Shown here: in pieces, positions 27,451 to 51,849 of the stretch | Layout: each line of letters starts with the position of its first letter | Numbering within the stretch: position 1 is the first letter of the stretch | Assembly: GCA_051859245.1 (NCBI GenBank) | Contig: JBHYGA010000001.1 | Location: forward strand, 1,024,001-1,088,000 | Length of the DNA: 64,000 nucleotides | Reading direction: 5' to 3' | Source: Gemmatimonadaceae bacterium | GTDB lineage: Bacteria; Gemmatimonadota; Gemmatimonadetes; Gemmatimonadales; Gemmatimonadaceae | Made by a program: the position numbers and the translations under genes | The notes under the pieces: model-generated | The model's database searches: none | Told to the model about the DNA's origin: nothing | The model's input: the letters and a program-made list of their open reading frames with translations, nothing else

Positions 27451-27631
27451 GCCAGGGCAGTAAGGGAAGGGAGGCCGTTCACTTAAGGAGGCGGGAACGT
27501 CAGGCGAAACGGCTCATCCGCCTTGTGGGCAGGTCAATCTACGTCTTCTGGCGAATAGCCCCACGCGGTCGCGTGATCGAGTTTGAAGGAACGCTACCAC
27601 TTGAACCACACATCAGTGAACGGAGAGTGTC

Positions 27632-28195: not shown

Positions 28196-28204
28196 CGATT
28201 GGTC

Positions 28205-30109: not shown

Positions 30110-30164
30110 GGGGGTCCGTACGCGTTGCCGACGGAGAGGTTTCCTGTTGCGCAGACACCCCGTG

Positions 30165-31253: not shown

Positions 31254-31518
31254 GAAAGAGCAAATGTTGGGGAGGGATGGCGTGCGCTCTGCGCACCGCT
31301 ATTGCGACACGTTGCCGGCGTGATTGGGTTGCCCCGAGGGGGACGCCCAGTGCGGGGAACTTCCGGACCCTCCCCTCAGGAAGACCCTGACTGCCTCGCC
31401 GATGCTGAACGACTAGCGTAGGCGTGCGAACGTGTGGCATGACCTGCGGCGTTCGCCTGCCGCGACTCGATCGCCGTCTGATTGGGTGCGCAGTTCTCTC
31501 GCGACCTCGGGAGTTGTT

Positions 31519-32133: not shown

Positions 32134-32142
32134 GATCCGGGA

Positions 32143-33027: not shown

Positions 33028-33039
33028 CCCCCGCGAGAT

Positions 33040-33669
33040 ATGAATAGCTGTGCCTGTAGCGCGATCCATGAGGGACGCCGCGTTGTGCTCACGGGCGGCC
33101 CTGGCGCAGGAAAGTCGGCGGTGCTCGAACTCGCGAAACTCTTTTTCTGCACGCACGTGCACACGCTGCCCGAGGCCGCGGGTATCGTGTTCGGCGGGCG
33201 CTTTCCTCGCAATGGCGCACCACGCATCCGACGCGCGGCGCAGGAGGCGATCTATCATGTGCAACACGCGCTGGAATCCACGATTGAGACAACCAATACG
33301 GCCGTTGTGCTCTGCGATCGTGGAACGCCTGACGGCGCCGCGTACTGGGTTGGCGACGATACGCTCTGGCAGTATGTGAAGAGCACGCGTGACGCCGAGC
33401 TCGCGCGCTACTACGCGGTGATCCACCTGCGCACGCCAAGCGTGAGTGATCATTACAATCTGGACAATCCGCTGCGAACTGAATCGCACGATGAAGCGCG
33501 CGCGATTGATGCGCGTATTGCGCAGGAGTGGGCGGGTCACCCGCGCATGTTCGATGTACCCGCGACGGATGACTTTCTCGGCAAGGCTGCGGCCGCGCTC
33601 GGGATACTCCGGGAGTTGGTGCCCGACTGCTGCCGCACGCAGATGCGCCCGCTGATCTGGCCGGCGTAA
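33040..33669 (+). CDS. AAA_28 / NadR-like P-loop ATPase
   Basis: VVLTGGPGAGKS, PEAA, VLCDRGTPDG.AYW. Confidence 0.8.
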   Translation: MNSCACSAIHEGRRVVLTGGPGAGKSAVLELAKLFFCTHVHTLPEAAGIVFGGRFPRNGAPRIRRAAQEAIYHVQHALESTIETTNTAVVLCDRGTPDGAAYWVGDDTLWQYVKSTRDAELARYYAVIHLRTPSVSDHYNLDNPLRTESHDEARAIDARIAQEWAGHPRMFDVPATDDFLGKAAAALGILRELVPDCCRTQMRPLIWPA

Positions 33670-33708
33670 CGCAACACAGGCGTGCGCCTTCTCTCAGAGG
33701 TCGAGCCC

Positions 33709-35073
33709 TCACACCGTCCGTGAGAACCGCCCCGCACCCGCCTGCGCCGGCAGGTACGCATCAAGTTCCATGCACAGATTGCGCAAGAAGAATCGTCCAA
33801 GAGGTGTGACCACGAGACGGTCCGCCTCATACGTGGCGAGACCGTCTTGCACGTACGGACTGAATCGAGGCCGCAGTTCTTCTTCAGCCCCCGGGAACAC
33901 GTCGTACGGCAGTTCGAGATTGCACATGAGATGGAGGATCGCATCCTGACGCGCGCGGTCGTCGTCGCTGCGAATGTGGCCACGAATCGTGGGCAAACGC
34001 CCGCGACTTACGCGTTCACGCCACGGTGACAATCCGGGTTCGTTCTGCGCGAAGTGCCCGGCCACATCGGAAATGGCACTCATGCCCACCGCCACGAGAT
34101 GCTGTGCCGGCATGGTCGTGTACCCCATGAAGTTCCGGTGCAATCGACCCTGACGCTGTGCAATGGTGAGCGGGTCATTGGCGCGGGCGAAGTGATCCAG
34201 TCCGATCCACGCATAACCGGCCGCAGTAAACGCCGACGCGGCCATGCGGAACAGCTCAAATCGCGTATGCGCGTCTGGCAGTTCGTCTTCGTGAATTACG
34301 CTCTGGTGCAAACGCTGGGTTGGCATGTGGGCGTAGCCAAAACACGCCACTCGGTCCGGCGCGAGTTCGATGACGCATTCGAGGGTTCGTGCGAACGTTT
34401 CGCGCGTTTGCCGAGGCAGGCCGTAAATGAGATCGAGGTTGATTTCCGCAAAACCCGCGGCCCGCGCGAGCGCAGACACCGTTTGCACCAGTTCGACCGG
34501 TTGCACCCGGCCAATCGCGTCTTGCACATCGTCATCCAGATCCTGCACGCCGAAGCTGATGCGCGTGAAGCCCAGCGCGTGAAGCAATCGCAACTGTCGC
34601 GGCGTGACCAAGCGAGGATCGGCCTCGATGCTTAGCTCAACATCGCGGGTAAAGCTGAATCGTCGCGAGAACATCTTGAATGCGCGAATGATTTGCGCGT
34701 CGTCGAGAAAGTTGGGGGTGCCGCCCCCCCAGTGCATTTGGGCCACGGCTCGCCCTTTGCCAAGCGCGTCGACCACGAGATCCAGTTCCGTCTCCAGCGT
34801 ATCGAGATATCGATCGACTATTTCGCGACGGGACGTTGTGAGTGCGTTGCACCCGCAGTAGAAGCACTTGGCGGCACAATAGGCGAAGTGCGCGTACAGT
34901 GCGATCGGCGCGTCGTCCGCGCTCGCTTGTACGAGCGCAGAGCGATAGGACGCATCATCCACGCTGGAGCTCCATGACGGCACCGTAGGATAGCTCGTGT
35001 AGCGCGGCCCGGATTTGTCGTACCGTTCGATCAGATCGCCCGGCACCTGGAGCGAATCGAGCGAGGTCAGCAC
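33709..35073 (-). CDS. hemN: Oxygen-independent coproporphyrinogen III oxidase
   Basis: GPRYTSYPT, CAAKCFYCGC, HWGGGTP, DLIYGLP.Q, IGLDHFA, RNFMGYT, terminal RFSRTV. Confidence 0.93.
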   Translation of the reverse strand: MLTSLDSLQVPGDLIERYDKSGPRYTSYPTVPSWSSSVDDASYRSALVQASADDAPIALYAHFAYCAAKCFYCGCNALTTSRREIVDRYLDTLETELDLVVDALGKGRAVAQMHWGGGTPNFLDDAQIIRAFKMFSRRFSFTRDVELSIEADPRLVTPRQLRLLHALGFTRISFGVQDLDDDVQDAIGRVQPVELVQTVSALARAAGFAEINLDLIYGLPRQTRETFARTLECVIELAPDRVACFGYAHMPTQRLHQSVIHEDELPDAHTRFELFRMAASAFTAAGYAWIGLDHFARANDPLTIAQRQGRLHRNFMGYTTMPAQHLVAVGMSAISDVAGHFAQNEPGLSPWRERVSRGRLPTIRGHIRSDDDRARQDAILHLMCNLELPYDVFPGAEEELRPRFSPYVQDGLATYEADRLVVTPLGRFFLRNLCMELDAYLPAQAGAGRFSRTV

Positions 35074-36803
35074 GGGCGCACACTCGCCAGATCCGGCGCG
35101 GAGCCGTCGATCTCGCCAACATCGTCGGCTTCACCCTCGTTGTCCATGTCTGCGAGCGCGACTCCGCCATCCGTTGCCTTGGCCGACGCGTACAATCGCG
35201 AGCGCTTCGGTGCGATGAACTCGTCCGCTGGCAGTTCATGTCCGCCTGACGCCACCATCGGCAACGAGCCGCGGCTGCTCTGCCCATGCACGTGCTGGAT
35301 CTCGCGCTTGCTCTGCAGGCGCACCAACTCTTCCTTCGACGTGGTCTTGGCTTCGTCGAACTTCCAGTCCACCGTGGATTGTCCCCAGTAATTGATGCGC
35401 CCCAGATCGTAAAAGCGTCGTTCCATGGCGCTCTTGAGGTACGCTTTCAGGCAACCTCGTAAATACTTGCGCCGATAGGGATCCTTGTCCCAGAGATATC
35501 CTCCCGTTGCCTTTTTGAAGTAGAAGCGACGATAGTTGTTGAGAACGCCTTTAAGCACGTCGTCACGCGACATGAGATCAGGCTGGATGATCGGCGTGAC
35601 AAAGTTGTATTTGGCGTAGTCGCGCACTTCGACCTTGTCGCCGAGTTCCTGAAAGAGATCAGAGAAGGGCCACGGAGTGTAGCAGTTCCAGTTCACCAGG
35701 TCGGGCTTCCAGTCGAGCGCCATATTGTAGGTTTCCTCGAGCGTCTCGGCGGTTTCATTCTCGAGCCCCACGATGAACTGTGCTTCGGCGACGATGCCGT
35801 TTTCCCGAAGCAGTTCAATGGCCCGCTTGCTCTGCTCAACTTTGATCTCCTTGTTGAAACGATCAAGCTTGAGCTGCGCCGCCGCCTCTGTGCCCAGTGA
35901 CACGTGGACTAGTCCGGCTTTGCGGTACATCGGCAACAAGGCTTCGTCGCGCAAAATGTCGGTGACGCGCGTGTTGATGCCCCACTTCACGCCCAGGTCG
36001 CGCGCAATCAGTTCCTCGCAGAGCGCGACGAACTTCTTGCGGTTGATGGTCGGTTCTTCGTCAGCAAGAATGAAGAACCCGACGTTGTGATCTCGTACCA
36101 GCAGTTCGATTTCGTCCACGAACTTCTTGGGATCGCGCGTGCGATACTGCCGCCAGAACTTCCACTGCGAGCAAAAGCTGCAGGTAAAGGGACAACCGCG
36201 CGCAAAGTTCGGGATCGCGACGCGACAGTTGAGCGGGATGTACATGTAACGGTCCCAGTTCAGAATGCCCCAGTCGGGCGTGAGCGAATCGAGGTCCTGA
36301 ATGGGCGGGTGCGGCTGCGTGGCAAACGGTTTGTCGTTGTCGAGGTACGCAACGCCCTTGATGCTCGAGCGTTCTGTCGGAAGTCGACCTTCATCGAGGG
36401 CGCGAATGAGGTTGACGATGATCTCTTCGCCTTCGCCGCGCACGATGTAGTCAATCCACGGGGCCTCCGAGAGCACCTGTCCGTACATGAAGGTGCCGTG
36501 AATGCCGCCGAGGATCGTGACCGCGTTGGGATGCAGTCGACGTACCATCTGGAGCGTTTCCTGCGCCTTGTAAATCGCTGGTGTGATCGCGGTGGCGAGC
36601 ACGGCGTCCGGGCGTTCTTCGCGCAGCATGGCTTCCAACGCGTCGTCCGCGATGTGATCCGTCATCGCGTCAATAAATCGAATATCCGTGTAGCCGGCTT
36701 TCTTGAGCGCACCGCTCAGGTACGCCACCCAGGCTGGTGGCCAGTTTCCGGCGATTTCGGCACCGCCAGAGTGATAGTTCGGATGGATCAGAACAATGCG
36801 CAT
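35067..36803 (-). CDS. bchE: Anaerobic Mg-protoporphyrin IX monomethyl ester cyclase (B12-dependent radical SAM)
   Basis: MRIVLIHPNYHSGGAEIAGNWPPAWVAYL, ARGCPFTCSFCSQWKFW, GTEAAAQLKLDRFNKE, RFYDLGR. Confidence 0.95.
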   Translation of the reverse strand: MRIVLIHPNYHSGGAEIAGNWPPAWVAYLSGALKKAGYTDIRFIDAMTDHIADDALEAMLREERPDAVLATAITPAIYKAQETLQMVRRLHPNAVTILGGIHGTFMYGQVLSEAPWIDYIVRGEGEEIIVNLIRALDEGRLPTERSSIKGVAYLDNDKPFATQPHPPIQDLDSLTPDWGILNWDRYMYIPLNCRVAIPNFARGCPFTCSFCSQWKFWRQYRTRDPKKFVDEIELLVRDHNVGFFILADEEPTINRKKFVALCEELIARDLGVKWGINTRVTDILRDEALLPMYRKAGLVHVSLGTEAAAQLKLDRFNKEIKVEQSKRAIELLRENGIVAEAQFIVGLENETAETLEETYNMALDWKPDLVNWNCYTPWPFSDLFQELGDKVEVRDYAKYNFVTPIIQPDLMSRDDVLKGVLNNYRRFYFKKATGGYLWDKDPYRRKYLRGCLKAYLKSAMERRFYDLGRINYWGQSTVDWKFDEAKTTSKEELVRLQSKREIQHVHGQSSRGSLPMVASGGHELPADEFIAPKRSRLYASAKATDGGVALADMDNEGEADDVGEIDGSAPDLASVRPC

Positions 36804-37060
36804 GCAGGATCTCCGGCGGAGCGCGATGAGACAGGACGAGAGCGTTCGGTTGACGACGTCAAGCTGTCCATTGCACGCCCTCGCCGCAGCAAGGGAACTG
36901 CTGTCTGGATGTCGGGAAATCCTTCGTGATTCAACGCGATGATTGTCGGGGAACTACGGACAGCATCCTGCAAATGCAACACCGCCCGACTTCGCAGGTC
37001 GTGCGAAGCCGGGCGGTGCGCCCACAAATCATCGGAACCTACTTCTGTTCTCGCCTTGGA

Positions 37061-38359
37061 CTACGGGTTGGGCGGTGTGTTCGGATTGCTGGACCGTTCG
37101 TTGAGCGGGTACGGCAACCAGTTCACGCGCGCTTCCTGCGCTCGGCCAAACCGACGTAAGTCGCTCCACGCCAGACCGCTTCCGAAGAGTGAATAGCGAC
37201 GTTGACGCGCCACTTCATTGAGCATCGCCGGCTGCGTTGCCAAGTCTGTGGACGTGCGCGGTGTCAGGTTGGCACGTTGACGCACCGCATTCACTTGCGC
37301 GAGCGCCTCCGGCAGTCGATTCAACCGCGCCAGCGCTTCGGCGCGAATGAGCGACACTTCGTCCTGCGTAAACATCGGATACGCTTCGGTCTGCGTTGCA
37401 AAGATCAACACGGGCACAACGCTTGAGCCACCGAACGACGCTTGCGGCGTTGGGCCGAACAATCGTGTTACGCGTGAATCGCCCGCCTCGGCATCGGTAC
37501 GCAACGACGCCTGTGCGGAGAAGTAGCGAAGCCCGGTAAAGACCGACCAGAGCGGACTCTGATCTGCCGTGGCGTAGCGATACTCGCTCTGCGCAGTGGT
37601 CGCCACATCATTGGCAAACGCCAACGCTTGATCGTTGCGTCCGGCAGCGAGTGCGAAGCGCGCCTGCCAGGCACGAATAAGGTTTGGCAGATCGATGCCT
37701 GGTGTCAGCAACTGAGACGTGAACTCGGCACTCGGCGGCGTTGCGTCGAGCGCTTGCCGAGCCTGCGCCAGCAAGTCGAGCGTGGTGTTGAGCGCCGCTG
37801 CACGGTCCACGAACGCAGACTCGAATCCCGTAATGTCAACCGGGATTTGCTGCCACGCCTCGGCAAGCGTACCGAACGCGTAGGCCTTCATGGTGAACGC
37901 CAACGCGCGAATACCGGAGACAGTGCCGGGTGCGAGTGTGACGCCCTCAATGCTGGCCAGCAGCTCGTTGGCCGTACGCACGATCTGATAGTGACGGCTC
38001 CAGAAGTTGAGCAGGTCCACATTCACGTCTTCGAGCGGCGTAAGCGCCCCCGGATCAGGGAAACGCTGAAACGCGCGCTGCGGCGCGAGAGACGCGTTGG
38101 TCACACCTAGCTCATTGGCAACGAGTCCGGGAATCCAGACGGCATCCGCGCGCGCGTTGCCCCAACGTCCTTGCAAGCCAACCGCGAGCGCTCGCACACC
38201 AGCGGGAGTGGTGAGCACGTTCACCTCGGTCGCCGCATTCGGATTGGCGATTTCGAGGTTACACGCAGTGAGCACAGTTCCGGACGCCGCGCACACGAGG
38301 AGTGTCGTGAGCGCAGTACGGCGAGCCGGCCGGGCAGTGATGAATGTCATGGTCGGCAT
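37061..38359 (-). CDS. RagB/SusD family lipoprotein
   Basis: Lipobox LTAC, NPN, EVSLIRAEALAR, VNAVRQRANL, DLRRFG, LPYP.NER. Confidence 0.85.
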   Translation of the reverse strand: MPTMTFITARPARRTALTTLLVCAASGTVLTACNLEIANPNAATEVNVLTTPAGVRALAVGLQGRWGNARADAVWIPGLVANELGVTNASLAPQRAFQRFPDPGALTPLEDVNVDLLNFWSRHYQIVRTANELLASIEGVTLAPGTVSGIRALAFTMKAYAFGTLAEAWQQIPVDITGFESAFVDRAAALNTTLDLLAQARQALDATPPSAEFTSQLLTPGIDLPNLIRAWQARFALAAGRNDQALAFANDVATTAQSEYRYATADQSPLWSVFTGLRYFSAQASLRTDAEAGDSRVTRLFGPTPQASFGGSSVVPVLIFATQTEAYPMFTQDEVSLIRAEALARLNRLPEALAQVNAVRQRANLTPRTSTDLATQPAMLNEVARQRRYSLFGSGLAWSDLRRFGRAQEARVNWLPYPLNERSSNPNTPPNP

Positions 38360-41528: not shown

Positions 41529-42221
41529 ATGTCGACTGAGCCTCTGCTTGCACGCCTGACCACTTCGTGGGTGGAGAACGCCGACGCGTGGACTACGGCC
41601 GTACGAAGCGGCGCGATCCCCAGCCGCCGCGCTGGTACTGATGACGCGATTCTTCGCGCGATCACGCAGGCACCGCCGGGCCCGTTGATCGATGTCGGAT
41701 GTGGCGAGGGGTGGCTGGCACGCGCCATCGCTGGCACAGGCCGCCGTGTACTCGGTGTCGACGCGAGCGGGCCGCTGATTGAAGCGGCGAAGCAGGCGGC
41801 GGGGGCTGGCGACCTGGACTACGAGCAGGCTACGTACGCCGAGCTGCCAGCTCGTGCGCGCGCGCGAGGCGATCTGTTTTCCGTGGCCGTCTGCAACTTT
41901 GCGTTGCTCGATGATCAACTCGCCGGCGCACTCGCGGCTATTCGCACGGTACTCGCGCCAACAGGCGTGTTACTCATTCAGACCGTACATCCGTTTACTG
42001 CGTGCGGCGAAGCCGCGTATCGTAACGGCTGGCGCGAAGAAACGTTTGATGCGTTTGGTGGTCGGTTCCCGTCACCGATGCCGTGGTACTTCCGCACGGT
42101 CGCCTCGTGGATCGACGAGATGAGCAGCGCGGGATTCGTGATCGAATCATTGGTGGAACCAGTCGCCACAGATGGAGTGCTGCCCTTGTCGTTGTTGTTG
42201 CGGGCTCGGCGCTCCGACTAG
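41529..42221 (+). CDS. Class I SAM-dependent methyltransferase
   Basis: LIDVGCGEGW, GVDAS, VCNFAL. Confidence 0.88.
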   Translation: MSTEPLLARLTTSWVENADAWTTAVRSGAIPSRRAGTDDAILRAITQAPPGPLIDVGCGEGWLARAIAGTGRRVLGVDASGPLIEAAKQAAGAGDLDYEQATYAELPARARARGDLFSVAVCNFALLDDQLAGALAAIRTVLAPTGVLLIQTVHPFTACGEAAYRNGWREETFDAFGGRFPSPMPWYFRTVASWIDEMSSAGFVIESLVEPVATDGVLPLSLLLRARRSD

Positions 42222-43792
42222 AACCGCACCGCGCTCGCCAGCTCCCACGCGCGTGACATGCCGCTTGTTTGCGGCGACGTCAGAAGCTGCCCGGCCACCA
42301 GCTGCGGATAGATGTCGGCGTAGCTGCGAATTTCCATGGCGCTGACACGCTTCATGATAAACCAGGGCTTAAGCTCGCGGGGCTGCTGCAGTCCGGCGGC
42401 GCCCAACACTTCAAAAAAGCTCTTGACCGTTTCGCGATGATACCGCGCCACACGTTCTGACTTGTCGCCCACGTGCAGGCCGGCTTCGAGTGCGCGATCC
42501 TGCGTTGCGATGCCGGTGGGGCACTGATTGGTATTGCATCGCAGTGCCTGAATGCATCCGAGCGCAAACATCATGGCGCGTGCCGCGTGACAAATGTCGG
42601 CGCCAAGTGCGACCTTGGTGGCCATGGCAAATCCGGTGTTCACCTTGCCCGACGCGATAATGCGGATTCGCTCGCGCAGCTCAGCACCAACCAGCGCATT
42701 GTGCACAAACGAAAGCCCTTCATTCAGTGGCGTACCAACGGAGTCGGAGAACTCCAGCGGAGCGGCGCCGGTGCCACCCTCGCCACCGTCAACCGTAATG
42801 AAGTCCGGAGTGATTCCGGTTTCCATCATCGCTTTGACGATGCCGAGAAACTCATGACGCTTACCAACGCACAGTTTGAATCCAACCGGTTTGCCGCCAC
42901 TTGCCACACGCAACCGTTTGATGAAGTGCAGGAGTTCGGTTGGCGTAGCGAACGCGGTATGCGCCGGTGGAGAGATCACGTCAAATCCCGGTTCGACCCC
43001 GCGAATCTCGACAATCTCTGGCGTAAGCTTTGACGCCGGAAGAATACCGCCGTGACCGGGTTTCGCTCCCTGCGAAAGCTTGATCTCGATCATCTTCACG
43101 TTTGGCAGCGTCGCGCGCTTTGCAAACTCTGTTTCGCTGAACCGTCCTGACTTGTCGCGGCAGCTGAAGTATCCGGTGCCGATCTGCCAGATGATGTCGC
43201 CACCGGGTTGCAGATGATAGGGACTCAGTCCACCTTCGCCCGTATTGTGTGCGAAGTTGCCAAGCCTGGCGCCTGTGTTGAGTGCGAGTACGGCGTTACG
43301 ACTGAGTGAGCCATAACTCATGCCCGACACGTTGAAAACCGACGAGGAATAGGGCTGCGTGCAATCCGGTCCCCCAACCATCACGCGCGCGTGCTGGGGA
43401 TCCGGGTGCACCGGCATCAGCGAATGATTGATCCATTCGTAGCCAGTGGCGTACACATCCTTCTGCGTACCAAAGGGCAGCGTGTCCGTATCGCCCTTCG
43501 CTCGCTGATAGATGACCGAACGATCGTTGCGGCTGAACGGTCGACCATCGTGGTTTGACTCGACGAAATACTGATTGATTTCCGGACGTATCGCTTCAAA
43601 CAGATAGCGTGCGTGCCCAATGAGCGGAAAGTTGCGCTTGATGGCCTGTCTGGTTTGCACCATGTCGGCCACACCGCGCGCGATGAGCGGCAGCAGAATG
43701 ACCAGAGACCACAAAGCCGGCGGCCACACAAGGGACACGCCGGCCACGGACAGCAACAGGACCGCTGAAACGGCCACGAAGAGAGTGCGCAT
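42218..43792 (-). CDS. FMN-binding glutamate synthase family protein (membrane-anchored, YerD-like)
   Basis: MSYGSLS, NTGEGG, EIKLSQGAKPGHGG, DGGEGGTGAAP, GCIQALRCNTNQCPTG; start at ATG 43792. Confidence 0.88.
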   Translation of the reverse strand: MRTLFVAVSAVLLLSVAGVSLVWPPALWSLVILLPLIARGVADMVQTRQAIKRNFPLIGHARYLFEAIRPEINQYFVESNHDGRPFSRNDRSVIYQRAKGDTDTLPFGTQKDVYATGYEWINHSLMPVHPDPQHARVMVGGPDCTQPYSSSVFNVSGMSYGSLSRNAVLALNTGARLGNFAHNTGEGGLSPYHLQPGGDIIWQIGTGYFSCRDKSGRFSETEFAKRATLPNVKMIEIKLSQGAKPGHGGILPASKLTPEIVEIRGVEPGFDVISPPAHTAFATPTELLHFIKRLRVASGGKPVGFKLCVGKRHEFLGIVKAMMETGITPDFITVDGGEGGTGAAPLEFSDSVGTPLNEGLSFVHNALVGAELRERIRIIASGKVNTGFAMATKVALGADICHAARAMMFALGCIQALRCNTNQCPTGIATQDRALEAGLHVGDKSERVARYHRETVKSFFEVLGAAGLQQPRELKPWFIMKRVSAMEIRSYADIYPQLVAGQLLTSPQTSGMSRAWELASAVRF

Positions 43793-43850
43793 GCGGTGAT
43801 AGTATCGGCCGCCTGCGTGAGGAGTTGAGTCGTCTCGCGCCGAACGGCTG

Positions 43851-45491
43851 CTACGATCCGCCTTTGGGTGCAACTACCCGCTGTACTGCCGCGAGACCTG
43901 CGTCCACGACAATCGCAAGCAGCGCTGCCGGAAGGGCTCCTGAGAGCACAAGCCGGCTATCTGCGAGGGCAAGTCCAGTGACAATCGGCTCACCAAGTCC
44001 GCCCGCACCAATGAACGCGGCCAGTGTTGCTGCACCCACCGTGATCACAGCCGCGGTGCGAATACCGCCGAGCACCGCCGTCGACGCAAGCGGCAGTTGC
44101 ACGCGCCACAATCGCTGCGCCTGCGTCATGCCGAGTGCTTCGCTGGCCGCAACCGCATCGGGGTCGGCGGTGGACACGCCGGTGTAGGTGGCGCGCACAA
44201 TCGGAAGCAAGGCGTACAGCCACAGTGCCACGAGTGCCGGTGTGGTGCCGATCCCGAAGAACGGCAGCATGAACGCCAACAGCGCAATCGACGGGATCGT
44301 CTGAAATACGCCGAGCATCTGCATCACGACGGACGCGATGCGTGGCCGCTGCGTGAGCGTAATGCCGAGTGGCAGTGCGATCAGGACGGCAGCAAGCATG
44401 GCGACCAGAACCAACATGCTATGCTGCAACAAGAGCCGCAGCGTTTCTGCGCGCCGGTTGAAAAAGAACGACCAGAACCCGTCTTGCTGCGATGTTGGTG
44501 TGACCGCCGATGATTCAGCGGTACTCGTTGCGCGCAGCAATCCCAGCTGCTGTAACGCCGCGCGCGCGACGTCGGGAATTGGCACGCGTTCCACTTCGAT
44601 CTGTCGATTCCATTCGCGCACCGACGGCTCCGACAGCCGACCGCTCAACTGCGACAACACACCCACGACCTCAGGACGCGTCTGCGCGATGCGCGGCGAC
44701 ACGATTGCCGCCGCGTCGTACGGTGGAAAGAAGTGACGGTCATCATCAAGCACCACCAGATCGTAGCGCGCCAGCAATCCATCGGTGGTGTAACCATCAA
44801 TCACATCCACGGAGCCGGCGGCGAGCGCTTCATATTTGACGGCTGGCGCAAGCGGTACGGCGGACTTGAGACGAAGACCATACGCGTCTGCCAGCCCGCT
44901 GAATCCATCCGAACGCCCAATGAAGTCACTCGTAAATCCGGCGGAGAGCGCGCGCCCTTCGCGCACAAGGTCGCTGATCGTTCGCAGTCGCAATCGCTCG
45001 GCGGATTCGCGGCGCACGGCAATGGCATATCCGTTGCTGAATCCAAGCGGCGGCAACCACTGCACGCCAAACTGTGCTTTGAACTGCTGCGCCACGTGCG
45101 CATAGAGCACGCGTGGATCTTCCCGCATGCGTGCCGTCGCCGTATCTCGCAGGACGGCAATCAAACCGGTGCCTGTGTATTCTGGATACACGTCAATTGC
45201 GTCCGATCGCAAGGCGCGGAATGCGACTTCTGTTGAGCCGAGTCCTGGCCGGCGCTGCACGACGAGACCATTCGCTTCCAGCAGTTGCGCGAACATTTCC
45301 GCCAGCAGATACGACTCGCCAAACGGTTTGGACGCAACGATCACGGCTTGAAGCGTAGGCGTTGCCGATATCGGAATATCGGCGGTGCGAGGCGACGCTG
45401 GCTGTGCGTGCGCGCCAGTGCAGGCGCAGAGCACGACGAGCAGGGACGTGATCGCGCGGGTCGCAAGAAGGCGGTGTACGCCGCGCGTCAT
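43851..45491 (-). CDS. Betaine/osmoprotectant-type ABC transporter, fused substrate-binding protein and permease
   Basis: SKPFGE, IDVYPEYTGT, LGFSNGY, YTTDG, FFPPY (OpuAC-like); QTIPSIAL, EALGMT, IGAGGLG (permease). Confidence 0.88.
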   Translation of the reverse strand: MTRGVHRLLATRAITSLLVVLCACTGAHAQPASPRTADIPISATPTLQAVIVASKPFGESYLLAEMFAQLLEANGLVVQRRPGLGSTEVAFRALRSDAIDVYPEYTGTGLIAVLRDTATARMREDPRVLYAHVAQQFKAQFGVQWLPPLGFSNGYAIAVRRESAERLRLRTISDLVREGRALSAGFTSDFIGRSDGFSGLADAYGLRLKSAVPLAPAVKYEALAAGSVDVIDGYTTDGLLARYDLVVLDDDRHFFPPYDAAAIVSPRIAQTRPEVVGVLSQLSGRLSEPSVREWNRQIEVERVPIPDVARAALQQLGLLRATSTAESSAVTPTSQQDGFWSFFFNRRAETLRLLLQHSMLVLVAMLAAVLIALPLGITLTQRPRIASVVMQMLGVFQTIPSIALLAFMLPFFGIGTTPALVALWLYALLPIVRATYTGVSTADPDAVAASEALGMTQAQRLWRVQLPLASTAVLGGIRTAAVITVGAATLAAFIGAGGLGEPIVTGLALADSRLVLSGALPAALLAIVVDAGLAAVQRVVAPKGGS

Positions 45492-46243
45492 GTGCTGGTC
45501 GCGAGGAATGCGATCGAGCTGATCGCCTGTTTAATCAGAGACGCCACGTACGGCGTTGAGGGCGACGATCGCAGTTCCTCAAACGAGCCGATCTGTTCGA
45601 TTCGGCCCGCGCGCATGACGGCAATGGAATCGGCCAGGCGAGCCGCTTCCGACAAGTCATGCGTGACAAGAATCGCAGTGAATGCAAGTTCTCGACGAAC
45701 GCGCAAGAAAACGTCATGCAACGCACTCCGCGAGATCGCGTCGAGCGCGCCGAACGGCTCGTCCAGCAACACGATTTGCTGCTGCGCCGCGAGCGCTCTG
45801 GCGATTGCCACGCGCTGACGCTGCCCACCGGAGAGCTGCCGTGGGTAGCGCGCGCCGAACTCGTGGGCGGGCAGCCCGACCAGCTCGAGTGCTTTTGCCG
45901 CCAGCTCCAGCGGCGATGGTTGGCGCAGCAGTTCGGGTACGAGCGCGACGTTTCGCTGCACCGTCCAGTGCGGAAGCAGGCCGCCGGATTGTGGTACGTA
46001 TCCAATGCGTCGACGCAGCGTCACCGGATCAAGCGTACGCACATCGTCGCCGTGCACGTGCACCCGACCGCTATCGGGCTCAACCAGCCTGTTGAAGGTC
46101 CGAAGCAGCGTGGTTTTTCCCGAACCACTCTCCCCAACAAGAGCAAGAGCGTCGCCAGCGCGAACGTCAACACTCACGCCGTTTAGCGCTTGAACGGTAC
46201 CGAACGAGTGCGAAATATCACGTGCGTGCAGGGCAGCGGTCAC
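45488..46243 (-). CDS. ABC transporter ATP-binding subunit (ProV/OpuA-like, no CBS domain)
   Basis: GESGSGKT, LRRRIGYVPQ, LSGGQRQR, LLDEPFGALD. Confidence 0.9.
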   Translation of the reverse strand: MTAALHARDISHSFGTVQALNGVSVDVRAGDALALVGESGSGKTTLLRTFNRLVEPDSGRVHVHGDDVRTLDPVTLRRRIGYVPQSGGLLPHWTVQRNVALVPELLRQPSPLELAAKALELVGLPAHEFGARYPRQLSGGQRQRVAIARALAAQQQIVLLDEPFGALDAISRSALHDVFLRVRRELAFTAILVTHDLSEAARLADSIAVMRAGRIEQIGSFEELRSSPSTPYVASLIKQAISSIAFLATST

Positions 46244-46355
46244 TTCTGGCAGGCTTCGGGGACGAAAGCGACAGGGTGGGGAACCTACTTGGCATCCATA
46301 TGATACATCAACATAAGGTTATACCCTACGCGTTTTCGTCCCTCTACTGCCCGCC

Positions 46356-47618
46356 ATGACCGTTGCCCGTCTCGACGCCACAGCTCTCTCACTCGCGGAA
46401 CGATATCGAAGCGTCCGAGAGGCAACGGTGGCGCTCTGTGTTCCGCTGGAAACCGAGGACTTTGTTGTTTCCAGCATGGACGACGTGAGCCCGACCAAGT
46501 GGCACCTCGCGCACACGAGTTGGTTTTTTGAGACCTTTGTGCTCGCGCCATTCATGGCATCGTACGTGGCGCGCCATCCGCGTTACGCGTTTCTCTTCAA
46601 CTCATACTATGTGCAGGCGGGCGAGCGACATTGCCGAGCCCAGCGTGGATTGGTCACACGCCCGACGGTGAGTGAGGTGTTCGAATATCGTCGCTACGTG
46701 GATGAGGCCGTCTTGTCGTTGTGCGATTCCATCGGAGACGATACGAATCACCCCGCATGGCACGTGCTGGAGCTGGGGCTCCATCATGAACAGCAACATC
46801 AGGAGCTGTTGCTCACTGATATCAAGCACGTGTTCTGGACGAATCCGATGCGCCCGGTGTATCACGACGCGCCGCTTCCGGTCCCGCCGTCCGTTGTTCA
46901 GGATTGGCAGGCGATCAGCGAAGGTGTGTACGACATCGGTCACGACGGCGCACAGTTTGCGTTCGACAATGAAGGACCGCGTCATCGCACATACGTGCAG
47001 TCAGCAAAGCTGGCCACGCGCTTGATCACCAACGCAGAGTACGCGCAGTTCATTGCCGACGGCGGGTATCGACAGCCGGCGCTCTGGCTCAGCGCGGGGT
47101 GGAGCACGGTGCAGTTGGAGAAGTGGGTCGCTCCGTTATACTGGGAGTTGCGCGATGGCAGTTGGCACGAGTTTACGCTGCGTGGTGACGGTCCAATCAA
47201 TGCCACGGCACCAGTCACGCACCTGAGCTATTTCGAAGCCGACGCGTTCGCTCGATGGGCCGGTGCGCGTTTGCCAACGGAAGCCGAATGGGAGCTGATC
47301 GCACGAACGCATGCGGTCAGCGGACGATTCGTGGAAGAGCGCATGTGGCATCCGGGGGCAGCTGTCGGCAGTGGCATGCAGCAGCTATTCGGCGACGTGT
47401 GGCAGTGGACGCAAAGTCCGTACGTCGCATATCCCGGATTTCGGCCGTCTGCAGGAGCGATCGGCGAATACAACGGGAAGTTCATGTGCGACCAGTGGGT
47501 ATTGCGCGGTGCTTCGTGCGCAACGCCTCGCTCGCACGCGCGGGCGACATATCGCAACTTTTTCCCCAGTGACGCACGCTGGCAGTTCTCGGGTATTCGA
47601 CTGGCGGCGGACGCATGA
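46356..47618 (+). CDS. egtB: Ergothioneine biosynthesis sulfoxide synthase
   Basis: SPTKWHLAHTSWFFETF, FNSYY, HHEQQHQEL (Fe ligands), FGE-like domain FDNEGPRH...RLPTEAEWE...EYNGKFM...YRNFF. Confidence 0.92.
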   Translation: MTVARLDATALSLAERYRSVREATVALCVPLETEDFVVSSMDDVSPTKWHLAHTSWFFETFVLAPFMASYVARHPRYAFLFNSYYVQAGERHCRAQRGLVTRPTVSEVFEYRRYVDEAVLSLCDSIGDDTNHPAWHVLELGLHHEQQHQELLLTDIKHVFWTNPMRPVYHDAPLPVPPSVVQDWQAISEGVYDIGHDGAQFAFDNEGPRHRTYVQSAKLATRLITNAEYAQFIADGGYRQPALWLSAGWSTVQLEKWVAPLYWELRDGSWHEFTLRGDGPINATAPVTHLSYFEADAFARWAGARLPTEAEWELIARTHAVSGRFVEERMWHPGAAVGSGMQQLFGDVWQWTQSPYVAYPGFRPSAGAIGEYNGKFMCDQWVLRGASCATPRSHARATYRNFFPSDARWQFSGIRLAADA

Positions 47619-48592
47619 CGCGAGCTGCGACGAACAATCTGTCGCTTCGGCACACCACGCCACGATCCGCATTCTCTCCGTCGCTCACGGCGACGGTCAT
47701 TCGTGGGCTCACGGACAGCGTCAAGACGCTGCCAGCGGTGCTGTTCTACGATGCGAAGGGAGCTCGCCTGTTTGAGGAAATCTGCGAGCAGCCGGAGTAC
47801 TATCCCACGCGCACCGAAATCGAGATTCTCACACGTCATGCGCCTAATCTCGCGCAGCACGCGGGGGCTCACGCCGCGCTGATTGAATATGGGAGTGGCG
47901 CAGGTGTGAAGGTGCGTTATCTGCTCGACGCGTTGCGGGATCCGGCAGCGTACATCCCGGTCGACGTGTCGCAGGAACAGCTGGTGCACGTGGCACGGGA
48001 ACGGGGACGACAGTACCCGGGATTACGCATTGCGCCTGTATGTGCAGACTACACCTTGCCGTTCGATCTGCCTGCGCTGCCCGTCGAGACACGACGCGTT
48101 GCGTTCTTCCCAGGCTCGACGATCGGCAATTTTCACCCCACGGAAGCGGCGGCCTTTCTGCACCGCATTCGCCATACCGTTGGCCCCAAGGGTGGCTTGA
48201 TCCTCGGCGTTGATCGGCGGAAAGACTTCCGTGTACTGCACGAGGCGTACAACGATCGTGCAGGCGTGACCGCGGCGTTCAACCTGAACATGTTGGCGCA
48301 TCTCAATCAGGCAATGAACGCCAACTTCGATCTGACCCAGTTCCGGCACGTGGCGTTCTTCAACAACGAAGCCAGCCGCATCGAGATGCATCTGGAATCG
48401 CTGGTCGAGCAGGAGGTGGTGGTGAACGACACGCTCGTGTACTTCGACGCTGGCGAAACGGTGCAGACGGAGTGCTCCTACAAATACGACGAGCAGACGC
48501 TGCGCGCATTGGTGGAGAGCAGCGGGTTCACCATTGACACGCTGTATTCGGATGACAACGACTGGTTCTACGTGGCGTGGCTCCGGCCATAA
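47615..48592 (+). CDS. egtD: L-histidine N-alpha-trimethyltransferase
   Basis: FYDAKG.RLFEEIC.QPEYYPTRTE, EYGSG, FPGSTIGNF, AYND.AGVTAAFNLN, RIEMHL, TECSYKY. Confidence 0.93.
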   Translation: MTRAATNNLSLRHTTPRSAFSPSLTATVIRGLTDSVKTLPAVLFYDAKGARLFEEICEQPEYYPTRTEIEILTRHAPNLAQHAGAHAALIEYGSGAGVKVRYLLDALRDPAAYIPVDVSQEQLVHVARERGRQYPGLRIAPVCADYTLPFDLPALPVETRRVAFFPGSTIGNFHPTEAAAFLHRIRHTVGPKGGLILGVDRRKDFRVLHEAYNDRAGVTAAFNLNMLAHLNQAMNANFDLTQFRHVAFFNNEASRIEMHLESLVEQEVVVNDTLVYFDAGETVQTECSYKYDEQTLRALVESSGFTIDTLYSDDNDWFYVAWLRP

Positions 48593-48612
48593 ACTTTTCA
48601 CTTGATATTGAC

Positions 48613-48894
48613 ATGAAAGCATTGTGGAATGGCGTCGTCATCGCTGAGAGTGATGACACGGTTATTGTCGAGGGCAACCACTATTTCCCGGCCGACTCTC
48701 TCCGCCGCGAGTACATCGTGGAGAGCGCGCATCAGACAACGTGCCCGTGGAAGGGCACCGCATCGTACTACAGTCTGAATGTGAACGGCGCGGAAAACCG
48801 AGACGCGGTGTGGTACTACGCCACGCCGAAAGCCGGTGCCGAACAGGTGGCGAAGCGGGTGGCGTTCTGGAAAGGTGTACAGGTCGCCGCGTGA
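48613..48894 (+). CDS. DUF427 domain protein
   Basis: MKALWNGVVIAESDDT.IVEGNHYFP, CPWKGTASYY, VAFWKGV. Confidence 0.9.
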   Translation: MKALWNGVVIAESDDTVIVEGNHYFPADSLRREYIVESAHQTTCPWKGTASYYSLNVNGAENRDAVWYYATPKAGAEQVAKRVAFWKGVQVAA

Positions 48895-50336
48895 TCCAAT
48901 CCCGTGCTGAGGGGTCGCCAACGCCGTTGATCGTTGACGCGGTGATTATCGGCACGGGTCAGGCGGCCGTGCCTCTGGCGGTCGCACTTGCCACGCAGGG
49001 TGAAACTGTGGCGCTGTTCGAAGGCGGTCAGCTCGGCGGCAGTTGCGTGAACGTCGGTTGCACACCAACAAAGACCTTACGCAAGAGCGCCCGCGTTGCG
49101 CACATGGCACGACGCGCGCATGAGTTTGGTGTGAACGTGGGTGAGGTTCGGGTTGACTTCGCCGCCGCGATGGAGCGTGCGGCCGCAGTTGTCGACGCAT
49201 CGCGAAACGGACTCACACGTTGGCTCGGTGACGCCGCCGGTGTGACCCTGGTTCGTGAGTGGGGCAGGCTTGATGGCAAGGCGAGCGACCGATTTGTGGT
49301 GCGTGGAAGCGCGACCGTCGTGCACGCATCACGCGTGTACGTGAACAGCGGCACGCGTCCTTTTCTTCCTCCCATTCCTGGCTTGTCGGATGTACCCGTG
49401 CTCACGAATGAGAGCATCATGCAGTTGCGTGCACTCCCGCGTCATCTGATGATTCTTGGTGGCAGTTACATTGGGCTGGAGTTCGGTCAGATCTTTCGGC
49501 GTCTCGGTAGTCAGGTCTCCATCATCGAAGCTGCTGAGACGGTGGCCAATCGGGAAGACGACGATATCGTCTCCCGCATTACGGCGCTCATGGAAGCCGA
49601 GGGCGTATCGTTGTACACGCAGGCGTCCGTGGTGGCCGTGGAACGCAGCACCGCAGCCGCCCCAAGCGAGACCTTGACGGTCACTATTCAGCATCGCGGT
49701 ACGAATGTACGCGAGGAGTTGTTTGCGTCACACGTGCTCGTCGCGACGGGTCGCGTTCCCAATACCGATCAACTCGGTCTGGAGACGGTTGGCGTCGCGC
49801 TCGATGACCGCGGATTCATTCCCGTGAACGGCGCGCTGGAAACGACAGTGCCCGGCATCTTCGCTCTGGGAGATGTGAACCGACGTGGTGCGTTTACGCA
49901 CACCAGCTACCAGGACTATGAGATCGTGCTCGCGAATCATCGCGGCACAGCGCGATCAGCTGATGGCCGCATCAGCACCTACGCTATGTATACCGACCCT
50001 CCGCTCGGACGCGTAGGACTTTCCGAGCGGGAAGCGCGCACGCTCGCCACACAGGGTCGGCGCTTCCTCACGGCATCGCACGAGATGCGGTTTGTGAGCC
50101 GTGCCAAGGAAGAAGGTGAAACCGTGGGTGTGATCAAGATGCTCGTTGACGCCGAAACGCGCCGGTTTGTTGGTGCGTCATTGCTCGGTATCGGTGCGGA
50201 CGAGATTGTGCAAATCATTGGCGCCATGATTGCGGCCGACGCTCCGTACGAAGTTTTGCGCGACGCGTTGCCGGTACACCCAACCGTCACCGAGTTTTTC
50301 CCTACGATCCTAGGGAAGCTCGCTCCACTCGAATAG
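48891..50336 (+). CDS. Pyridine nucleotide-disulfide oxidoreductase (MerA/RclA/LpdA-like)
   Basis: GTG overlaps the DUF427 stop (GTGA); IIGTGQA, GGSCVNVGCTPTK, GGSYIGLEF, HPTVTE; no C-terminal Cys-Cys pair. Confidence 0.88.
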   Translation: MIQSRAEGSPTPLIVDAVIIGTGQAAVPLAVALATQGETVALFEGGQLGGSCVNVGCTPTKTLRKSARVAHMARRAHEFGVNVGEVRVDFAAAMERAAAVVDASRNGLTRWLGDAAGVTLVREWGRLDGKASDRFVVRGSATVVHASRVYVNSGTRPFLPPIPGLSDVPVLTNESIMQLRALPRHLMILGGSYIGLEFGQIFRRLGSQVSIIEAAETVANREDDDIVSRITALMEAEGVSLYTQASVVAVERSTAAAPSETLTVTIQHRGTNVREELFASHVLVATGRVPNTDQLGLETVGVALDDRGFIPVNGALETTVPGIFALGDVNRRGAFTHTSYQDYEIVLANHRGTARSADGRISTYAMYTDPPLGRVGLSEREARTLATQGRRFLTASHEMRFVSRAKEEGETVGVIKMLVDAETRRFVGASLLGIGADEIVQIIGAMIAADAPYEVLRDALPVHPTVTEFFPTILGKLAPLE

Positions 50337-50380
50337 CAATCGCTTATGGCGCGACGCGATCATTGGCCCAACGCGAGCGT

Positions 50381-51217
50381 CTAGCGTGATCCATCCGGCG
50401 GCGTCTCCCGCCGGTACTCTACACCGAGCACACGTACGAGCTGCACCACGTCTGCAGCAGGCCAGCGCTCACCGTTGCTCGGTCGATTGTACCACCACGC
50501 CGCGGCCGTTGAATCCGGCATGACAATCAACGGCGATACTTCACGAAACGACGAGAATCCCTCAAGCCGCGCCGGTCCCTCGCGCGTACTCGCCACCAGC
50601 GAGAACTCAACGCGCTGCAGCACGCTCGTTGTCGAATCAAGCGTGACGGTGCCGCTCCAATCGGGCCAGCGTACGGCGTCGCTTGGTGCGAAGCCAAGGC
50701 GCACCTGCGCGCGACCGCTCGCGAAGGACGACGAGACACCGGTGACACAGTGATACGACCAGAATTCGGGATCGCCGAGTGTCTCAACGAAGAGGATCTG
50801 CGCGGAGAATCCGCCGCATGTGCCGGTGCGAACCACGTCGTACGGCTTGTATCGGTCGCCCCATCGCTCTGAGTTCGTGCGTTCCTCGTGGCGTGTCTCT
50901 CTCGGCGGTCGCGTGGGTCCATCGTGCTTCGAGGTGCGGGGCTCGGTCTGCACACGAAATGGGTACGCCCGCCGGAACGAGCCGTAGCGCTCAGCGCCTT
51001 CGCGAAGTTGCAGCAGTGCCCAGTAGGCAAGAGGCGCTTGCTCCGGAGCGATTGCGGGGCAGCCTCGCGCTTCGGTAATCGCCACCGTGGGAAGGTCCAG
51101 GGCGACGACTTTGATTGCCGTCCGTACGATCACAACGAGGGATTGCGACTGCGCGGCGAGTTGTGGTGCGCCTGCGAATAAGAACAGAGCGGACAGGGCC
51201 AGACATTTCACCACCAT
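50381..51217 (-). CDS. Secreted hypothetical protein
   Basis: Signal peptide; start coupled to the upstream stop (TAATG). Confidence 0.55.
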   Translation of the reverse strand: MVVKCLALSALFLFAGAPQLAAQSQSLVVIVRTAIKVVALDLPTVAITEARGCPAIAPEQAPLAYWALLQLREGAERYGSFRRAYPFRVQTEPRTSKHDGPTRPPRETRHEERTNSERWGDRYKPYDVVRTGTCGGFSAQILFVETLGDPEFWSYHCVTGVSSSFASGRAQVRLGFAPSDAVRWPDWSGTVTLDSTTSVLQRVEFSLVASTREGPARLEGFSSFREVSPLIVMPDSTAAAWWYNRPSNGERWPAADVVQLVRVLGVEYRRETPPDGSR

Positions 51218-51849
51218 TAACCACCTTTCGACGTCACCGGATGGATGGTCTCCCCACGCGCGAGCATTGCGACCAACTCGGCAATTTTCAGCGCGCGGCG
51301 TGCAGGTGTGGTCGCGGTCTCCACGCGAAACAGAATCGCATAGCGGTTGTCGCGCTTCAGCTGCTCAAACGCCGCGAGGGCCACCGGGTTCGCATTGAGT
51401 GCCTGCTGCAAGTCGTCTGGAACCGAACTCTTACTCGACGACGAATATGCGCGGTCCCACCGACCGTCGGACTTGGCGGCCTCAACCGCTGCCAATCCCG
51501 CGGGTTGCATTACACCGCTCGCGATCAAACGCTCCACATGTCCAACGTTCACTTTGGACCAGATGCTGCGCGGCCCGCGTGGCGTGAACTTGATCAGGTA
51601 TGACGCGTCATCGTATCGCTTGAGCTGGCCATCGATCCAGCCGTAGCAGAGCGCGATATCCAGCGCTTCGGCGTACTTCATAGTCGTGTATGCCGCCGCT
51701 TTCTTGGCAAAGCGTAGCCAAACTCCGCGCGCCGTCGTGTGCTGTGCATGCAGCCACACCTGCCACTCCTCAGGCGACGCAAACATCAGCGTTGGATACT
51801 CGGCGCGCGAGGAGCTTTGCGAGGCAGACGCGGTGGATTTTTTCATCAT
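51217..51849 (-). CDS. YdeI/OmpD-associated family protein
   Basis: EALDIALCYGWIDGQ, FTPR.PRSIWSKVN, VPDDLQQAL.ANP. Confidence 0.9.
   Translation of the reverse strand: MMKKSTASASQSSSRAEYPTLMFASPEEWQVWLHAQHTTARGVWLRFAKKAAAYTTMKYAEALDIALCYGWIDGQLKRYDDASYLIKFTPRGPRSIWSKVNVGHVERLIASGVMQPAGLAAVEAAKSDGRWDRAYSSSSKSSVPDDLQQALNANPVALAAFEQLKRDNRYAILFRVETATTPARRALKIAELVAMLARGETIHPVTSKGG

Follow-up and report, generated by a model that had tools for sequence, protein, structure and literature searches.

Within a 64,000-nucleotide stretch of contig JBHYGA010000001.1 from a Gemmatimonadaceae bacterium (hereafter the window), the interval 43851-50336 carries the ergothioneine (ET) biosynthesis genes egtB and egtD, followed on the same strand by a gene for a small DUF427 protein and a gene for a flavoprotein disulfide reductase, and preceded by a divergent ATP-binding cassette (ABC) importer of the betaine type. 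Based on the conservation of this locus, we propose that the reductase, the DUF427 protein as its cysteine-bearing partner and the importer form an NAD(P)H-driven system that re-reduces oxidised ET, a reading to which we assign a probability of about one half. The host is a soil-type member of the Gemmatimonadota with a 4.7-Mb genome that is 99.9% complete, and the closest relatives of every gene in the locus are likewise from Gemmatimonadota.

The linkage of the reductase to ET genes was analysed in 80 loci with reductase relatives, taken from contigs representing one genome per species and searched for the other proteins of the window. A reductase at least 56% identical to that of the window was encoded in 22 loci (two of them being the same contig read twice); in 16 of these, egtD lay immediately upstream of the reductase gene, mostly together with egtB and the DUF427 gene, and the divergent transporter was also present in seven Gemmatimonadota loci of this set. 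None of the 58 loci with a reductase of 52% identity or less carried any egt gene, and because of this distribution the egtB-egtD-(DUF427)-reductase arrangement exceeds chance. Nine of the 16 linked loci belonged to Burkholderiales or other Pseudomonadota (Ramlibacter and relatives), and the arrangement therefore spans two phyla. In a quick maximum-likelihood tree of 76 rows, built with IQ-TREE and supported by Shimodaira-Hasegawa-like approximate likelihood ratio test (SH-aLRT) values only, the reductase of the window fell into a clade of 25 rows, 19 of which were egt-adjacent, and four or more additional deep lineages within this subfamily also consisted of egt-linked reductases, the unlinked clades being interspersed between these lineages. 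The clade contained six exceptions; EgtD was detected above its cut-off elsewhere in all five of their genomes that could be searched, and in the genomes with an unlinked in-clade reductase the DUF427 gene was still located just downstream of egtD.

We also searched 301 Gemmatimonadota genomes, a total that includes four unpublished ones on which no individual claim depends, for the reductase, EgtD, the DUF427 subfamily, the transporter and glutathione reductase (GR). EgtD was present in 125 of them. Using a threshold of at least 290 bits, set afterwards and placed above the 268 bits scored by a paralogue from the window's own genome, a reductase relative was found in 38 genomes, and EgtD accompanied it in 35 of these 38 compared to 90 of the 263 others. 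The reductase lay within 2 kb of EgtD in 15 of the 38, and ten of these 15 reductases were only 39-46% identical to that of the window. Gene order varied among such loci: in five genomes a single strand encoded the reductase, an EgtB of type I (348 bits to its best solved relative, 4x8b), EgtD and a GCS2 protein resembling EgtA; five more had the reductase divergent from EgtB-EgtD; and in L098, L102, L104, L109 and the metagenome locus L156 the reductase was followed immediately, with no change of strand, by the transporter genes. Since the architectures differ and at least four further deep lineages contain linked members, the association of the reductase with egt genes is independent of any one gene order, EgtB type or lineage. 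A first-pass annotation of the window had staked its interpretation on orthologues of the reductase not being rare next to egtBD, and the counts from the clade and from the Gemmatimonadota agree with that expectation. As a separate observation, a 42.9-kb contig of a metagenome-assembled genome (MAG), JBBRFQ010000010.1, shows identical gene patterns in opposite orientation at 5787-23199 (reversed; L006) and 19734-37146 (L007), which reflects inverted duplication of the whole egt/reductase/transporter cassette or else an error of assembly; L007 was left out of the trees.

Among the accessory genes, the importer is the one most strongly linked to the egt genes. An importer orthologue was present in 94 of the 301 Gemmatimonadota genomes, 79 of which had EgtD, corresponding to 79 of the 125 EgtD-positive versus 15 of the 176 EgtD-negative genomes, and it was located within approximately 4.5 kb of egtD in at least 34 of the 94. 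The ATPase gene was kept next to the permease gene in related loci, and the best NCBIfam match of the ATPase was the proV betaine/proline/choline subfamily (227 bits, below the cut-off of 327). The fused subunit consists of an N-terminal signal-like segment, a betaine-type binding domain at approximately residues 50-315 and a C-terminal permease domain at approximately residues 373-540. EgtU/EgtUV of S. pneumoniae, H. pylori and L. monocytogenes (BilE) likewise have permease and binding domain fused in one polypeptide and the ATPase as a separate protein, but the domain order is reversed, the binding domain being N-terminal in the importer of the window and the transmembrane domain N-terminal in EgtUBC as described in the available part of PMC12922746. 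The best solved relatives of the binding domain were the ET-binding EgtUC chains 9egj/7txl (182 bits), with Lmo1422 (166), archaeal AfProX (156), Listeria BilEB and a choline-binder scaffold close behind. Fifteen importer orthologues were found beside egt genes or the reductase. The carboxylate-clamp residues K55, T108 and R193 and the aromatic-cage residues N153, Y155, Y234 and Y258, equivalent to EgtU K242, T296 and R379 and to N339, Y341, Y419 and Y443 (residue roles as defined in PMC9732360), place the protein with subcluster F-III and were invariant in 16/16 orthologues; EgtU T275 is conserved as well.

Two observations concern importers in genomes where EgtD was not detected. Ten of the 15 EgtD-negative importer carriers belong to one genus (g80: G133, G140, G142, G199, G204, G215, G218, G239, G257 and G284) and have importers 51-53% identical to that of the window, which would fit candidate scavengers of ET or hercynine. 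In an Ilumatobacter sp. MAG (L019:7989-13062), a reductase, an ATPase, a permease and an OpuAC binding protein are encoded on one strand and no EgtD was found in the genome; this module could possibly be an 'import and reduce' unit in a non-producer.

Both biosynthetic proteins of the window passed the curated equivalog cut-offs of their models (Table 1), which are 360 bits for EgtB and 290.9 bits for EgtD, the latter match covering profile positions 2-300 of 301. The best solved relatives of EgtB were 8qf6/6qki/6o6l, 'EgtB (Cabther)', with 523 bits, while 4x8b reached only 126 bits, and the enzyme is thus of the Chloracidobacterium thermophilum type (type II) and not of the mycobacterial type.

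The DUF427 protein exceeded the gathering cut-off of its family (22 bits; Table 1) and carries the motif C44-P-W-K-G with a single invariant cysteine, Cys44. Its AlphaFold model, with a predicted local distance difference test (pLDDT) score of 97.5, matched the solved DUF427 structure 3djm (Z 15.9, root-mean-square deviation 1.2 over 93 residues) and, as a likeness at the level of the fold only, Mis18/yippee (Z 8.5-9.7), the cereblon CULT domain (6.0), MsrB1 (5.9), S. aureus MsrB (5.0) and Gfa (4.3). The modelled fold is a beta-tent, in agreement with the grouping of DUF427 given in the available text of PMC4287342, in which MsrB and Gfa have the same fold. Twelve residues were invariant across 23 aligned rows (E20, Y24, P26, C44, W46, K47, G48, A50, Y52, W67, Y69 and P72), five of them aromatic (Y24, W46, Y52, W67 and Y69), and the C-x-W-K-G motif was present in 23/23 of these rows and in 91 of 96 longer relatives (E <= 1e-8, 164-2000 aa). 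The egt-linked DUF427 proteins form a tight subfamily, 54-84% identical to the protein of the window across phyla. At a threshold of at least 100 bits, the egt-type protein occurred in 19 of the 301 Gemmatimonadota genomes, all 19 of which had EgtD. A second DUF427 in the window's genome (542512-542790, locus L087, within a 203-aa open frame) is only 23% identical.

The domain fusions of DUF427 are informative about its chemistry. Thioredoxin-fold domains were found in 30 of the 96 longer relatives, with a C-[GPA]-P-C motif in 27 and DUF427 at the N-terminus in 26 of these fusions, and the three that were examined at full length read W-C-G-P-C. Other partners were the DsbD/CcdA membrane thiol-transfer domain (4), EgtD (3) and a Crp-type regulator (2). 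Because of the thioredoxin-fold and DsbD/CcdA fusions, the data argue that Cys44 engages in thiol-disulfide chemistry and needs a reductant, and the suggestion in the first-pass annotation that the CPWKG cysteine takes part thereby gains independent support. In L188, moreover, DUF427 adjoins a locus for oxygen-independent ET synthesis of the EanB/EanA type, whose sulfurtransferase scored 688 bits to the EanB structures 6ktv/6h9a. Since such a locus has no sulfoxide step, DUF427 would concern ET or hercynine rather than the sulfoxide intermediate of EgtB, and a role on that intermediate was set aside. No conserved neighbours of DUF427 away from egt genes were found beyond DUF427 itself, and a search of a protein-cluster atlas with DUF427 returned only DUF427 clusters. 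We therefore regard the protein as a candidate cysteine-based redox partner or ergothioneine-binding protein. Methionine sulfoxide reductase MsrB and thioredoxin, including natural Msr-thioredoxin fusions, offer a comparison, having both the beta-tent fold and the thioredoxin-fold fusions in common with DUF427, which has one invariant cysteine; however, the two families have no detectable sequence similarity, their Z scores are at fold-only level and DUF427 has no zinc site.

One alternative assumes that the accessory genes serve the use of ET and not its repair, with DUF427 binding, sensing or carrying ET and the reductase employing ET or a conjugate in another reaction, for example the reductive release of ET from S-conjugates or the reduction of 5-oxo-ET. 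The invariant aromatic-rich surface of DUF427 would suit such a role, as would the fold that it shares with the ligand-binding CULT and yippee domains. P0003 and P0005 (310 aa), the two proteins in which an N-terminal DUF427 precedes a Crp/FNR-type regulator with cyclic nucleotide monophosphate-binding and helix-turn-helix domains, point in the same direction and hint that DUF427 can also act as a sensor module. However, the thioredoxin-fold and DsbD/CcdA fusions favour thiol-disulfide chemistry at Cys44 over passive binding, and we consider the alternative unlikely.

The reductase has the redox pair C52-V-N-V-G-C57 and the C-terminal dyad H463-P-T-V-T-E468, and all four residues (C52/C57 and H463/E468) were invariant in 25/25 members of its clade. 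With matches to Pyr_redox_2, Pyr_redox and Pyr_redox_dim in Pfam, it has the features of a class-I flavoprotein disulfide reductase. Its best NCBIfam model was NF004992, 'FAD-containing oxidoreductase' (525 bits, below the cut-off of 629), and it remained below the cut-off of every named-enzyme NCBIfam model, including trypanothione reductase. GR (NF004776, 240 versus 480 bits; TIGR01424, 235 versus 606) and mycothione reductase (NF005884, 246 versus 501) were rejected as identities on these grounds. The nucleotide-binding motif I-I-E-A-A-E places a Glu at the end of the second beta strand, which we take to be an NADH-type pattern. Thr58, directly after the second redox cysteine, and Arg105 are common to the egt-linked groups, whereas Arg58 and Ser/Val105 take their place in the unlinked clades of Anaerolineae and Acidimicrobiia; positions 58 and 105 are thus candidate specificity-determining positions, not more. 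Besides two dihydrolipoamide dehydrogenase (Lpd) genes, the window's genome encodes two further PRK06370-type paralogues. A search for reductase fusions among 8000 scored candidates gave one long protein at E <= 1e-60, an unrelated Gfo/Idh/MocA-type fusion.

The nearest solved structures of the reductase were 6kgy/6kod (E. coli RclA, 232 bits) and 8ajj (S. aureus MerA, 206 bits), both described as hypothiocyanous acid (HOSCN) reductases in the available part of PMC11107202. This raises the alternative that the protein reduces oxidants or electrophiles in general, in the manner of RclA/Har, with HOSCN, HOCl-related species, Cu(II) or quinones as substrates, and is merely co-regulated with ET in an oxidative-stress regulon. 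The neighbourhoods of two unlinked in-clade copies are in line with it, one lying beside an AhpC/TSA-type redoxin gene and another beside ArsR and a low-molecular-weight phosphatase/ArsC-like gene. Like the reductase of the window, RclA (E. coli, 6KGY), Har (S. pneumoniae) and MerA (S. aureus, 8AJJ) are without the C-terminal cysteines of mercuric MerA. In contrast, the scores of the reductase were less than half of the cut-offs (RclA model NF040477, 295 versus 740 bits; HOSCN-reductase model NF041853, 272 versus 650), leading us to reject an HOSCN-reductase identity, and the alignment revealed an insertion of approximately 17 residues after the redox helix as compared to 6kgy and 8ajj. Moreover, two active-site lysines in a G-x-G-K-x-G-K motif (K13 and K16 in Har numbering) are common to Har, RclA and MerA according to the available text of PMC11107202, while the same alignment has Gln24 and Val27 at these positions and G-x-G-Q is found throughout the subfamily of the window's reductase. 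A stress enzyme should furthermore neither track EgtD as closely as in 35 of 38 genomes nor share an operon with a betaine-type importer, and a general oxidant reductase is accordingly rather improbable.

The reductase may alternatively serve to maintain the pathway's sulfur donor in the reduced state, as a cystine or bis-gamma-glutamylcystine reductase feeding EgtB. The model for such an enzyme is the halobacterial gamma-glutamylcystine reductase, which was long annotated as MerA. The reductase heads the operon in the five genomes with a type-I EgtB, EgtD and the EgtA-like GCS2 glutamate-cysteine ligase, and the genome of the window contains a GCS2 ligase gene (195 bits) as well as a GshB-like ATP-grasp gene (169 bits), and none of its proteins passed a GR model. 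On the other hand, no EgtA was found near the egt operon in the window. Type-I and type-II EgtB differ in the donor they use, yet members of the reductase subfamily are linked to both, and the subfamily is also paired with a quaternary-amine ABC importer, even in the Ilumatobacter genome; neither observation would be expected of a cysteine or gamma-Glu-Cys enzyme. The element shared by type-I and type-II loci is the product and not the sulfur donor, and this explanation has little probability in our view. An identity as mercuric reductase or dihydrolipoamide dehydrogenase (E3), the labels that automatic annotation tends to give, is very improbable for the reductase, since its broad similarity to both stays below the cut-offs (TIGR02053, 301 versus 454 bits; TIGR01350, 299 versus 408.8), its C-terminal tail is free of cysteines, an N-terminal metal-binding domain is absent, two other proteins of the genome pass the Lpd model (533 and 535 bits), and MerT (PF02411) was not found across the whole genome. 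The part of the first-pass annotation that set the reductase apart from MerA, by the missing C-terminal Cys-Cys pair and the lack of mer genes, thus holds.

Returning to the proposal that the locus recycles ET, we envisage that EgtD and the type-II EgtB make ET, for which a C-S lyase encoded elsewhere would be required, and that the divergent ABC system would import a histidine-betaine-like quaternary amine, most likely ET itself, and so supply or salvage it. Electrons would pass from NAD(P)H via flavin adenine dinucleotide (FAD) and C52/C57 to oxidised ET and return it to the thione, candidate substrates being ET disulfide, ET sulfenic acid and mixed disulfides of ET with a protein or small thiol. 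Cys44 of DUF427, lying among the invariant aromatics, would meet the oxidised ET species and may be reset by the reductase here and by the fused thioredoxin domain in other organisms, resembling MsrB with thioredoxin. A more far-reaching version is a dedicated bacterial ET redox cycle, in which a specialised reductase subfamily acts on oxidised ET directly or via DUF427, DUF427 is the founding member of a beta-tent single-cysteine 'ergothioneine redoxin' family, and the importer salvages ET for producers and non-producers alike; we offer this version tentatively, as possible and falling short of probable.

The chemistry of such recycling is plausible by analogy, because HOSCN, the substrate that RclA, Har and S. 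aureus MerA reduce, is formally a sulfenic acid (HO-S-CN), and ET is likewise first oxidised to a sulfenic acid. ET also leaves the C-S lyase step of its biosynthesis in this form. In mammals, the reaction proposed here, in which a flavoprotein of the superfamily uses NADPH to reduce ET disulfide (and 5-oxo-ET), is carried out by the selenoprotein thioredoxin reductase (TrxR) and by GR together with glutathione, and the available part of PMC8868364 reports that only the selenium-containing mammalian TrxR reduces ET disulfide directly, that non-selenium TrxRs hardly do so and that GR needs glutathione. Unlike the proposed enzyme, mammalian TrxR and GR are generalists, selenocysteine- or glutathione-dependent and not encoded together with ET genes, and the reductase of the window has no Sec/Cys C-terminal redox centre and no glutathione system nearby. 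The GR model NF004776 (E <= 1e-110) matched the control genomes of E. coli, Caulobacter and Synechococcus but gave no hit in any of the 301 Gemmatimonadota genomes. Since non-selenium TrxRs hardly reduce ET disulfide, GR depends on glutathione and no GR was found in these genomes, the need for a dedicated ET reductase is plausible.

The closest precedents are the reductases of other low-molecular-weight disulfides, namely glutathione, mycothione (Mtr), trypanothione and glutathione amide reductases, which have the same fold, with FAD and NAD(P)H domains, a C-x-x-x-x-C on the first helix and a C-terminal His-Glu dyad. Each of them recycles one cognate cellular thiol, and the same role is proposed for the reductase of the window. 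The differences are that the latter scores below the glutathione and mycothione reductase cut-offs and that its proposed substrate would be a thione and betaine rather than a cysteinyl thiol.

Several observations weigh against the recycling proposal. The EgtU specificity residues G244, F293 and Y337 are absent from the importer, which instead has F57, Y105 and F151, the glycine-betaine pattern of AfProX, invariant in 16/16 orthologues; at the position of EgtU E375 it has Asp. According to the available text of PMC9732360, G244 and the F293/Y337 'Y-to-F switch' are the ET-specificity determinants of the S. pneumoniae EgtU subcluster, and subclusters without them may have another or a relaxed specificity, although in some cases, such as the H. 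pylori protein, ET uptake is retained at a lower affinity. Because subclusters without the determinants can still take up ET, the sequence does not settle the substrate of the importer. The first-pass annotation, which had taken the transporter for a relative of characterised ET importers, was right about the structural family, with EgtUC as the best solved relative; the residues at the three specificity positions are of the AfProX type.

The distribution of the other two components sets further limits. The reductase was found in only 35 of the 125 EgtD-positive Gemmatimonadota genomes, as would be the case for an optional add-on, and three of the 38 reductase-bearing genomes (G200, G103 and G299) showed no EgtD. 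The Anaerolineae and Acidimicrobiia clades of the same subfamily were never egt-linked, EgtD was found in one of the five genomes sampled from them and missing from the other four, and their reductases had heterogeneous neighbours with no recurring alternative partner; the subfamily therefore probably has, or has acquired, other substrates. Adjacency of the DUF427 subfamily to egt genes was limited to 6 of the 19 genomes and, among 25 metagenome loci with good flanks, to 5. In a Comamonadaceae-level sample of 201 genomes the enrichment was modest, with EgtD in 26 of 30 reductase-positive versus 104 of 171 other genomes, and only four of the 30 had EgtD adjacent to the reductase, three of these adjacent copies being a second, divergent EgtD. 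The sampled genomes are moreover related, and the counts overstate independence. Finally, ordinary thiols reduce ET disulfide chemically, and since the genome also has the GCS2 and GshB-like genes, a dedicated ET reductase is not obviously required. Taken together, the reading of the first-pass annotation as a make, import and recycle system is sustained by the genomic linkage, by the support for DUF427 and by a reductase that is not MerA, and is weakened by the importer residues and the limited spread of the reductase among EgtD-positive genomes; the role given to the reductase rests on genomic evidence. In the Comamonadaceae-level sample, G434, G415 and G459 carry two EgtD genes, of which the reductase-adjacent copy is the lower-scoring one (281-296 bits), and this suggests a second, probably transferred, reductase-egtB-egtD cassette in these genomes.

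The features of the locus are listed in Table 1.

Table 1. Features of the ergothioneine locus in the window, with the model matches on which their assignment is based.
Feature	Coordinates	Strand or length	Evidence
Fused ABC importer subunit (binding protein/permease)	43851-45491	-	OpuAC 201 bits, BPD_transp_1 68 bits (Pfam)
ABC transporter ATP-binding subunit	45488-46243	-	ABC_tran 121 bits (Pfam)
Divergent intergenic region, transporter operon/egt operon	46244-46355	112 bp	Presumed shared control region
egtB, type II sulfoxide synthase	46356-47618	+	TIGR03440 559 bits
egtD, L-histidine N-alpha-methyltransferase (to hercynine)	47615-48592	+	TIGR03438 390 bits; Methyltransf_33 351 bits (Pfam)
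DUF427 protein, 93 aa	48613-48894	+	PF04248 109 bits
Class-I flavoprotein disulfide reductase, 481 aa	48891-50336	+	Pyr_redox_2 178 bits, Pyr_redox_dim 66 bits

On the plus strand, egtB and egtD overlap by ATGA, the stop codon of egtD (48590-48592) is separated by 20 bp from the ATG start of the DUF427 gene, and the DUF427 stop codon (48892-48894) overlaps the GTG start of the reductase gene by GTGA. The ATPase gene is the first of the divergent transporter operon and overlaps the binding-protein/permease gene by 4 bp. The gene order, overlaps, 20-bp gap and 112-bp divergence given in the first-pass annotation were all confirmed, coordinate by coordinate, from the list of open reading frames and the sequence. 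No sigma-70 consensus match was found in the intergenic region, and a promoter/terminator consensus scan gave no promoter-like and three terminator-like sites, fewer than in shuffled sequences, the consensus being uninformative for this phylum. Rfam models at permissive thresholds had no match in 43000-51500 of the window. A 551-aa protein with a flavin mononucleotide-binding 'Glu_synthase' domain (285 bits) is encoded at 42218-43873 on the minus strand; its gene shares 23 bp with the end of the binding-protein/permease gene, which has the same orientation, and may be co-transcribed with the transporter. Relatives of this protein were found in none of the 80 reductase loci.

The components described here have been listed together before. 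Among the neighbours of EgtB-like genes, the available part of a study entitled 'Widespread Biosynthesis of Thiohistidine Dipeptides in Bacteria' (PMC13674229, 2026) gives DUF427 at 5.7%, Lpd/PRK06370 at 4.0%, an AfProX-like permease at 5.4% and an ABC ATPase at 13.6%; in that part the reductase family is labelled 'pyruvate dehydrogenase E3' and grouped as housekeeping, and frequencies are reported with no function proposed. Our literature search returned no paper with the phrase 'ergothioneine reductase', and ergothioneine combined with reductase terms gave only mammalian TrxR work and reviews, so that no cognate ET reductase is described in the literature searched. The first-pass annotation had said as much of a dedicated enzyme, and to this must be added that the co-occurrence itself is already tabulated, uninterpreted, in the available part of PMC13674229. 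So far on genomic evidence, the locus would represent a system of the cognate low-molecular-weight-thiol reductase type with an unexplained partner protein, which is real, recurrent and directly testable, and the candidate proteins are small, soluble and not from a pathogen, making the decisive assays simple.

Many bacteria, fungi and animals synthesise ET or take it up, and the only direct enzymatic recycling reported is that by mammalian selenoprotein TrxR or by GR together with glutathione (PMC8868364). If the proposal is true, a systematic misannotation of the reductases as 'mercuric reductase' or 'E3' would be corrected, and DUF427, a widespread family with a solved structure, would obtain a concrete and testable role. 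It would also explain why producers of ET carry an importer as well. ET would then have a cognate recycling machinery like those of glutathione, mycothiol and trypanothione, and would be a true redox buffer instead of a sacrificial scavenger.

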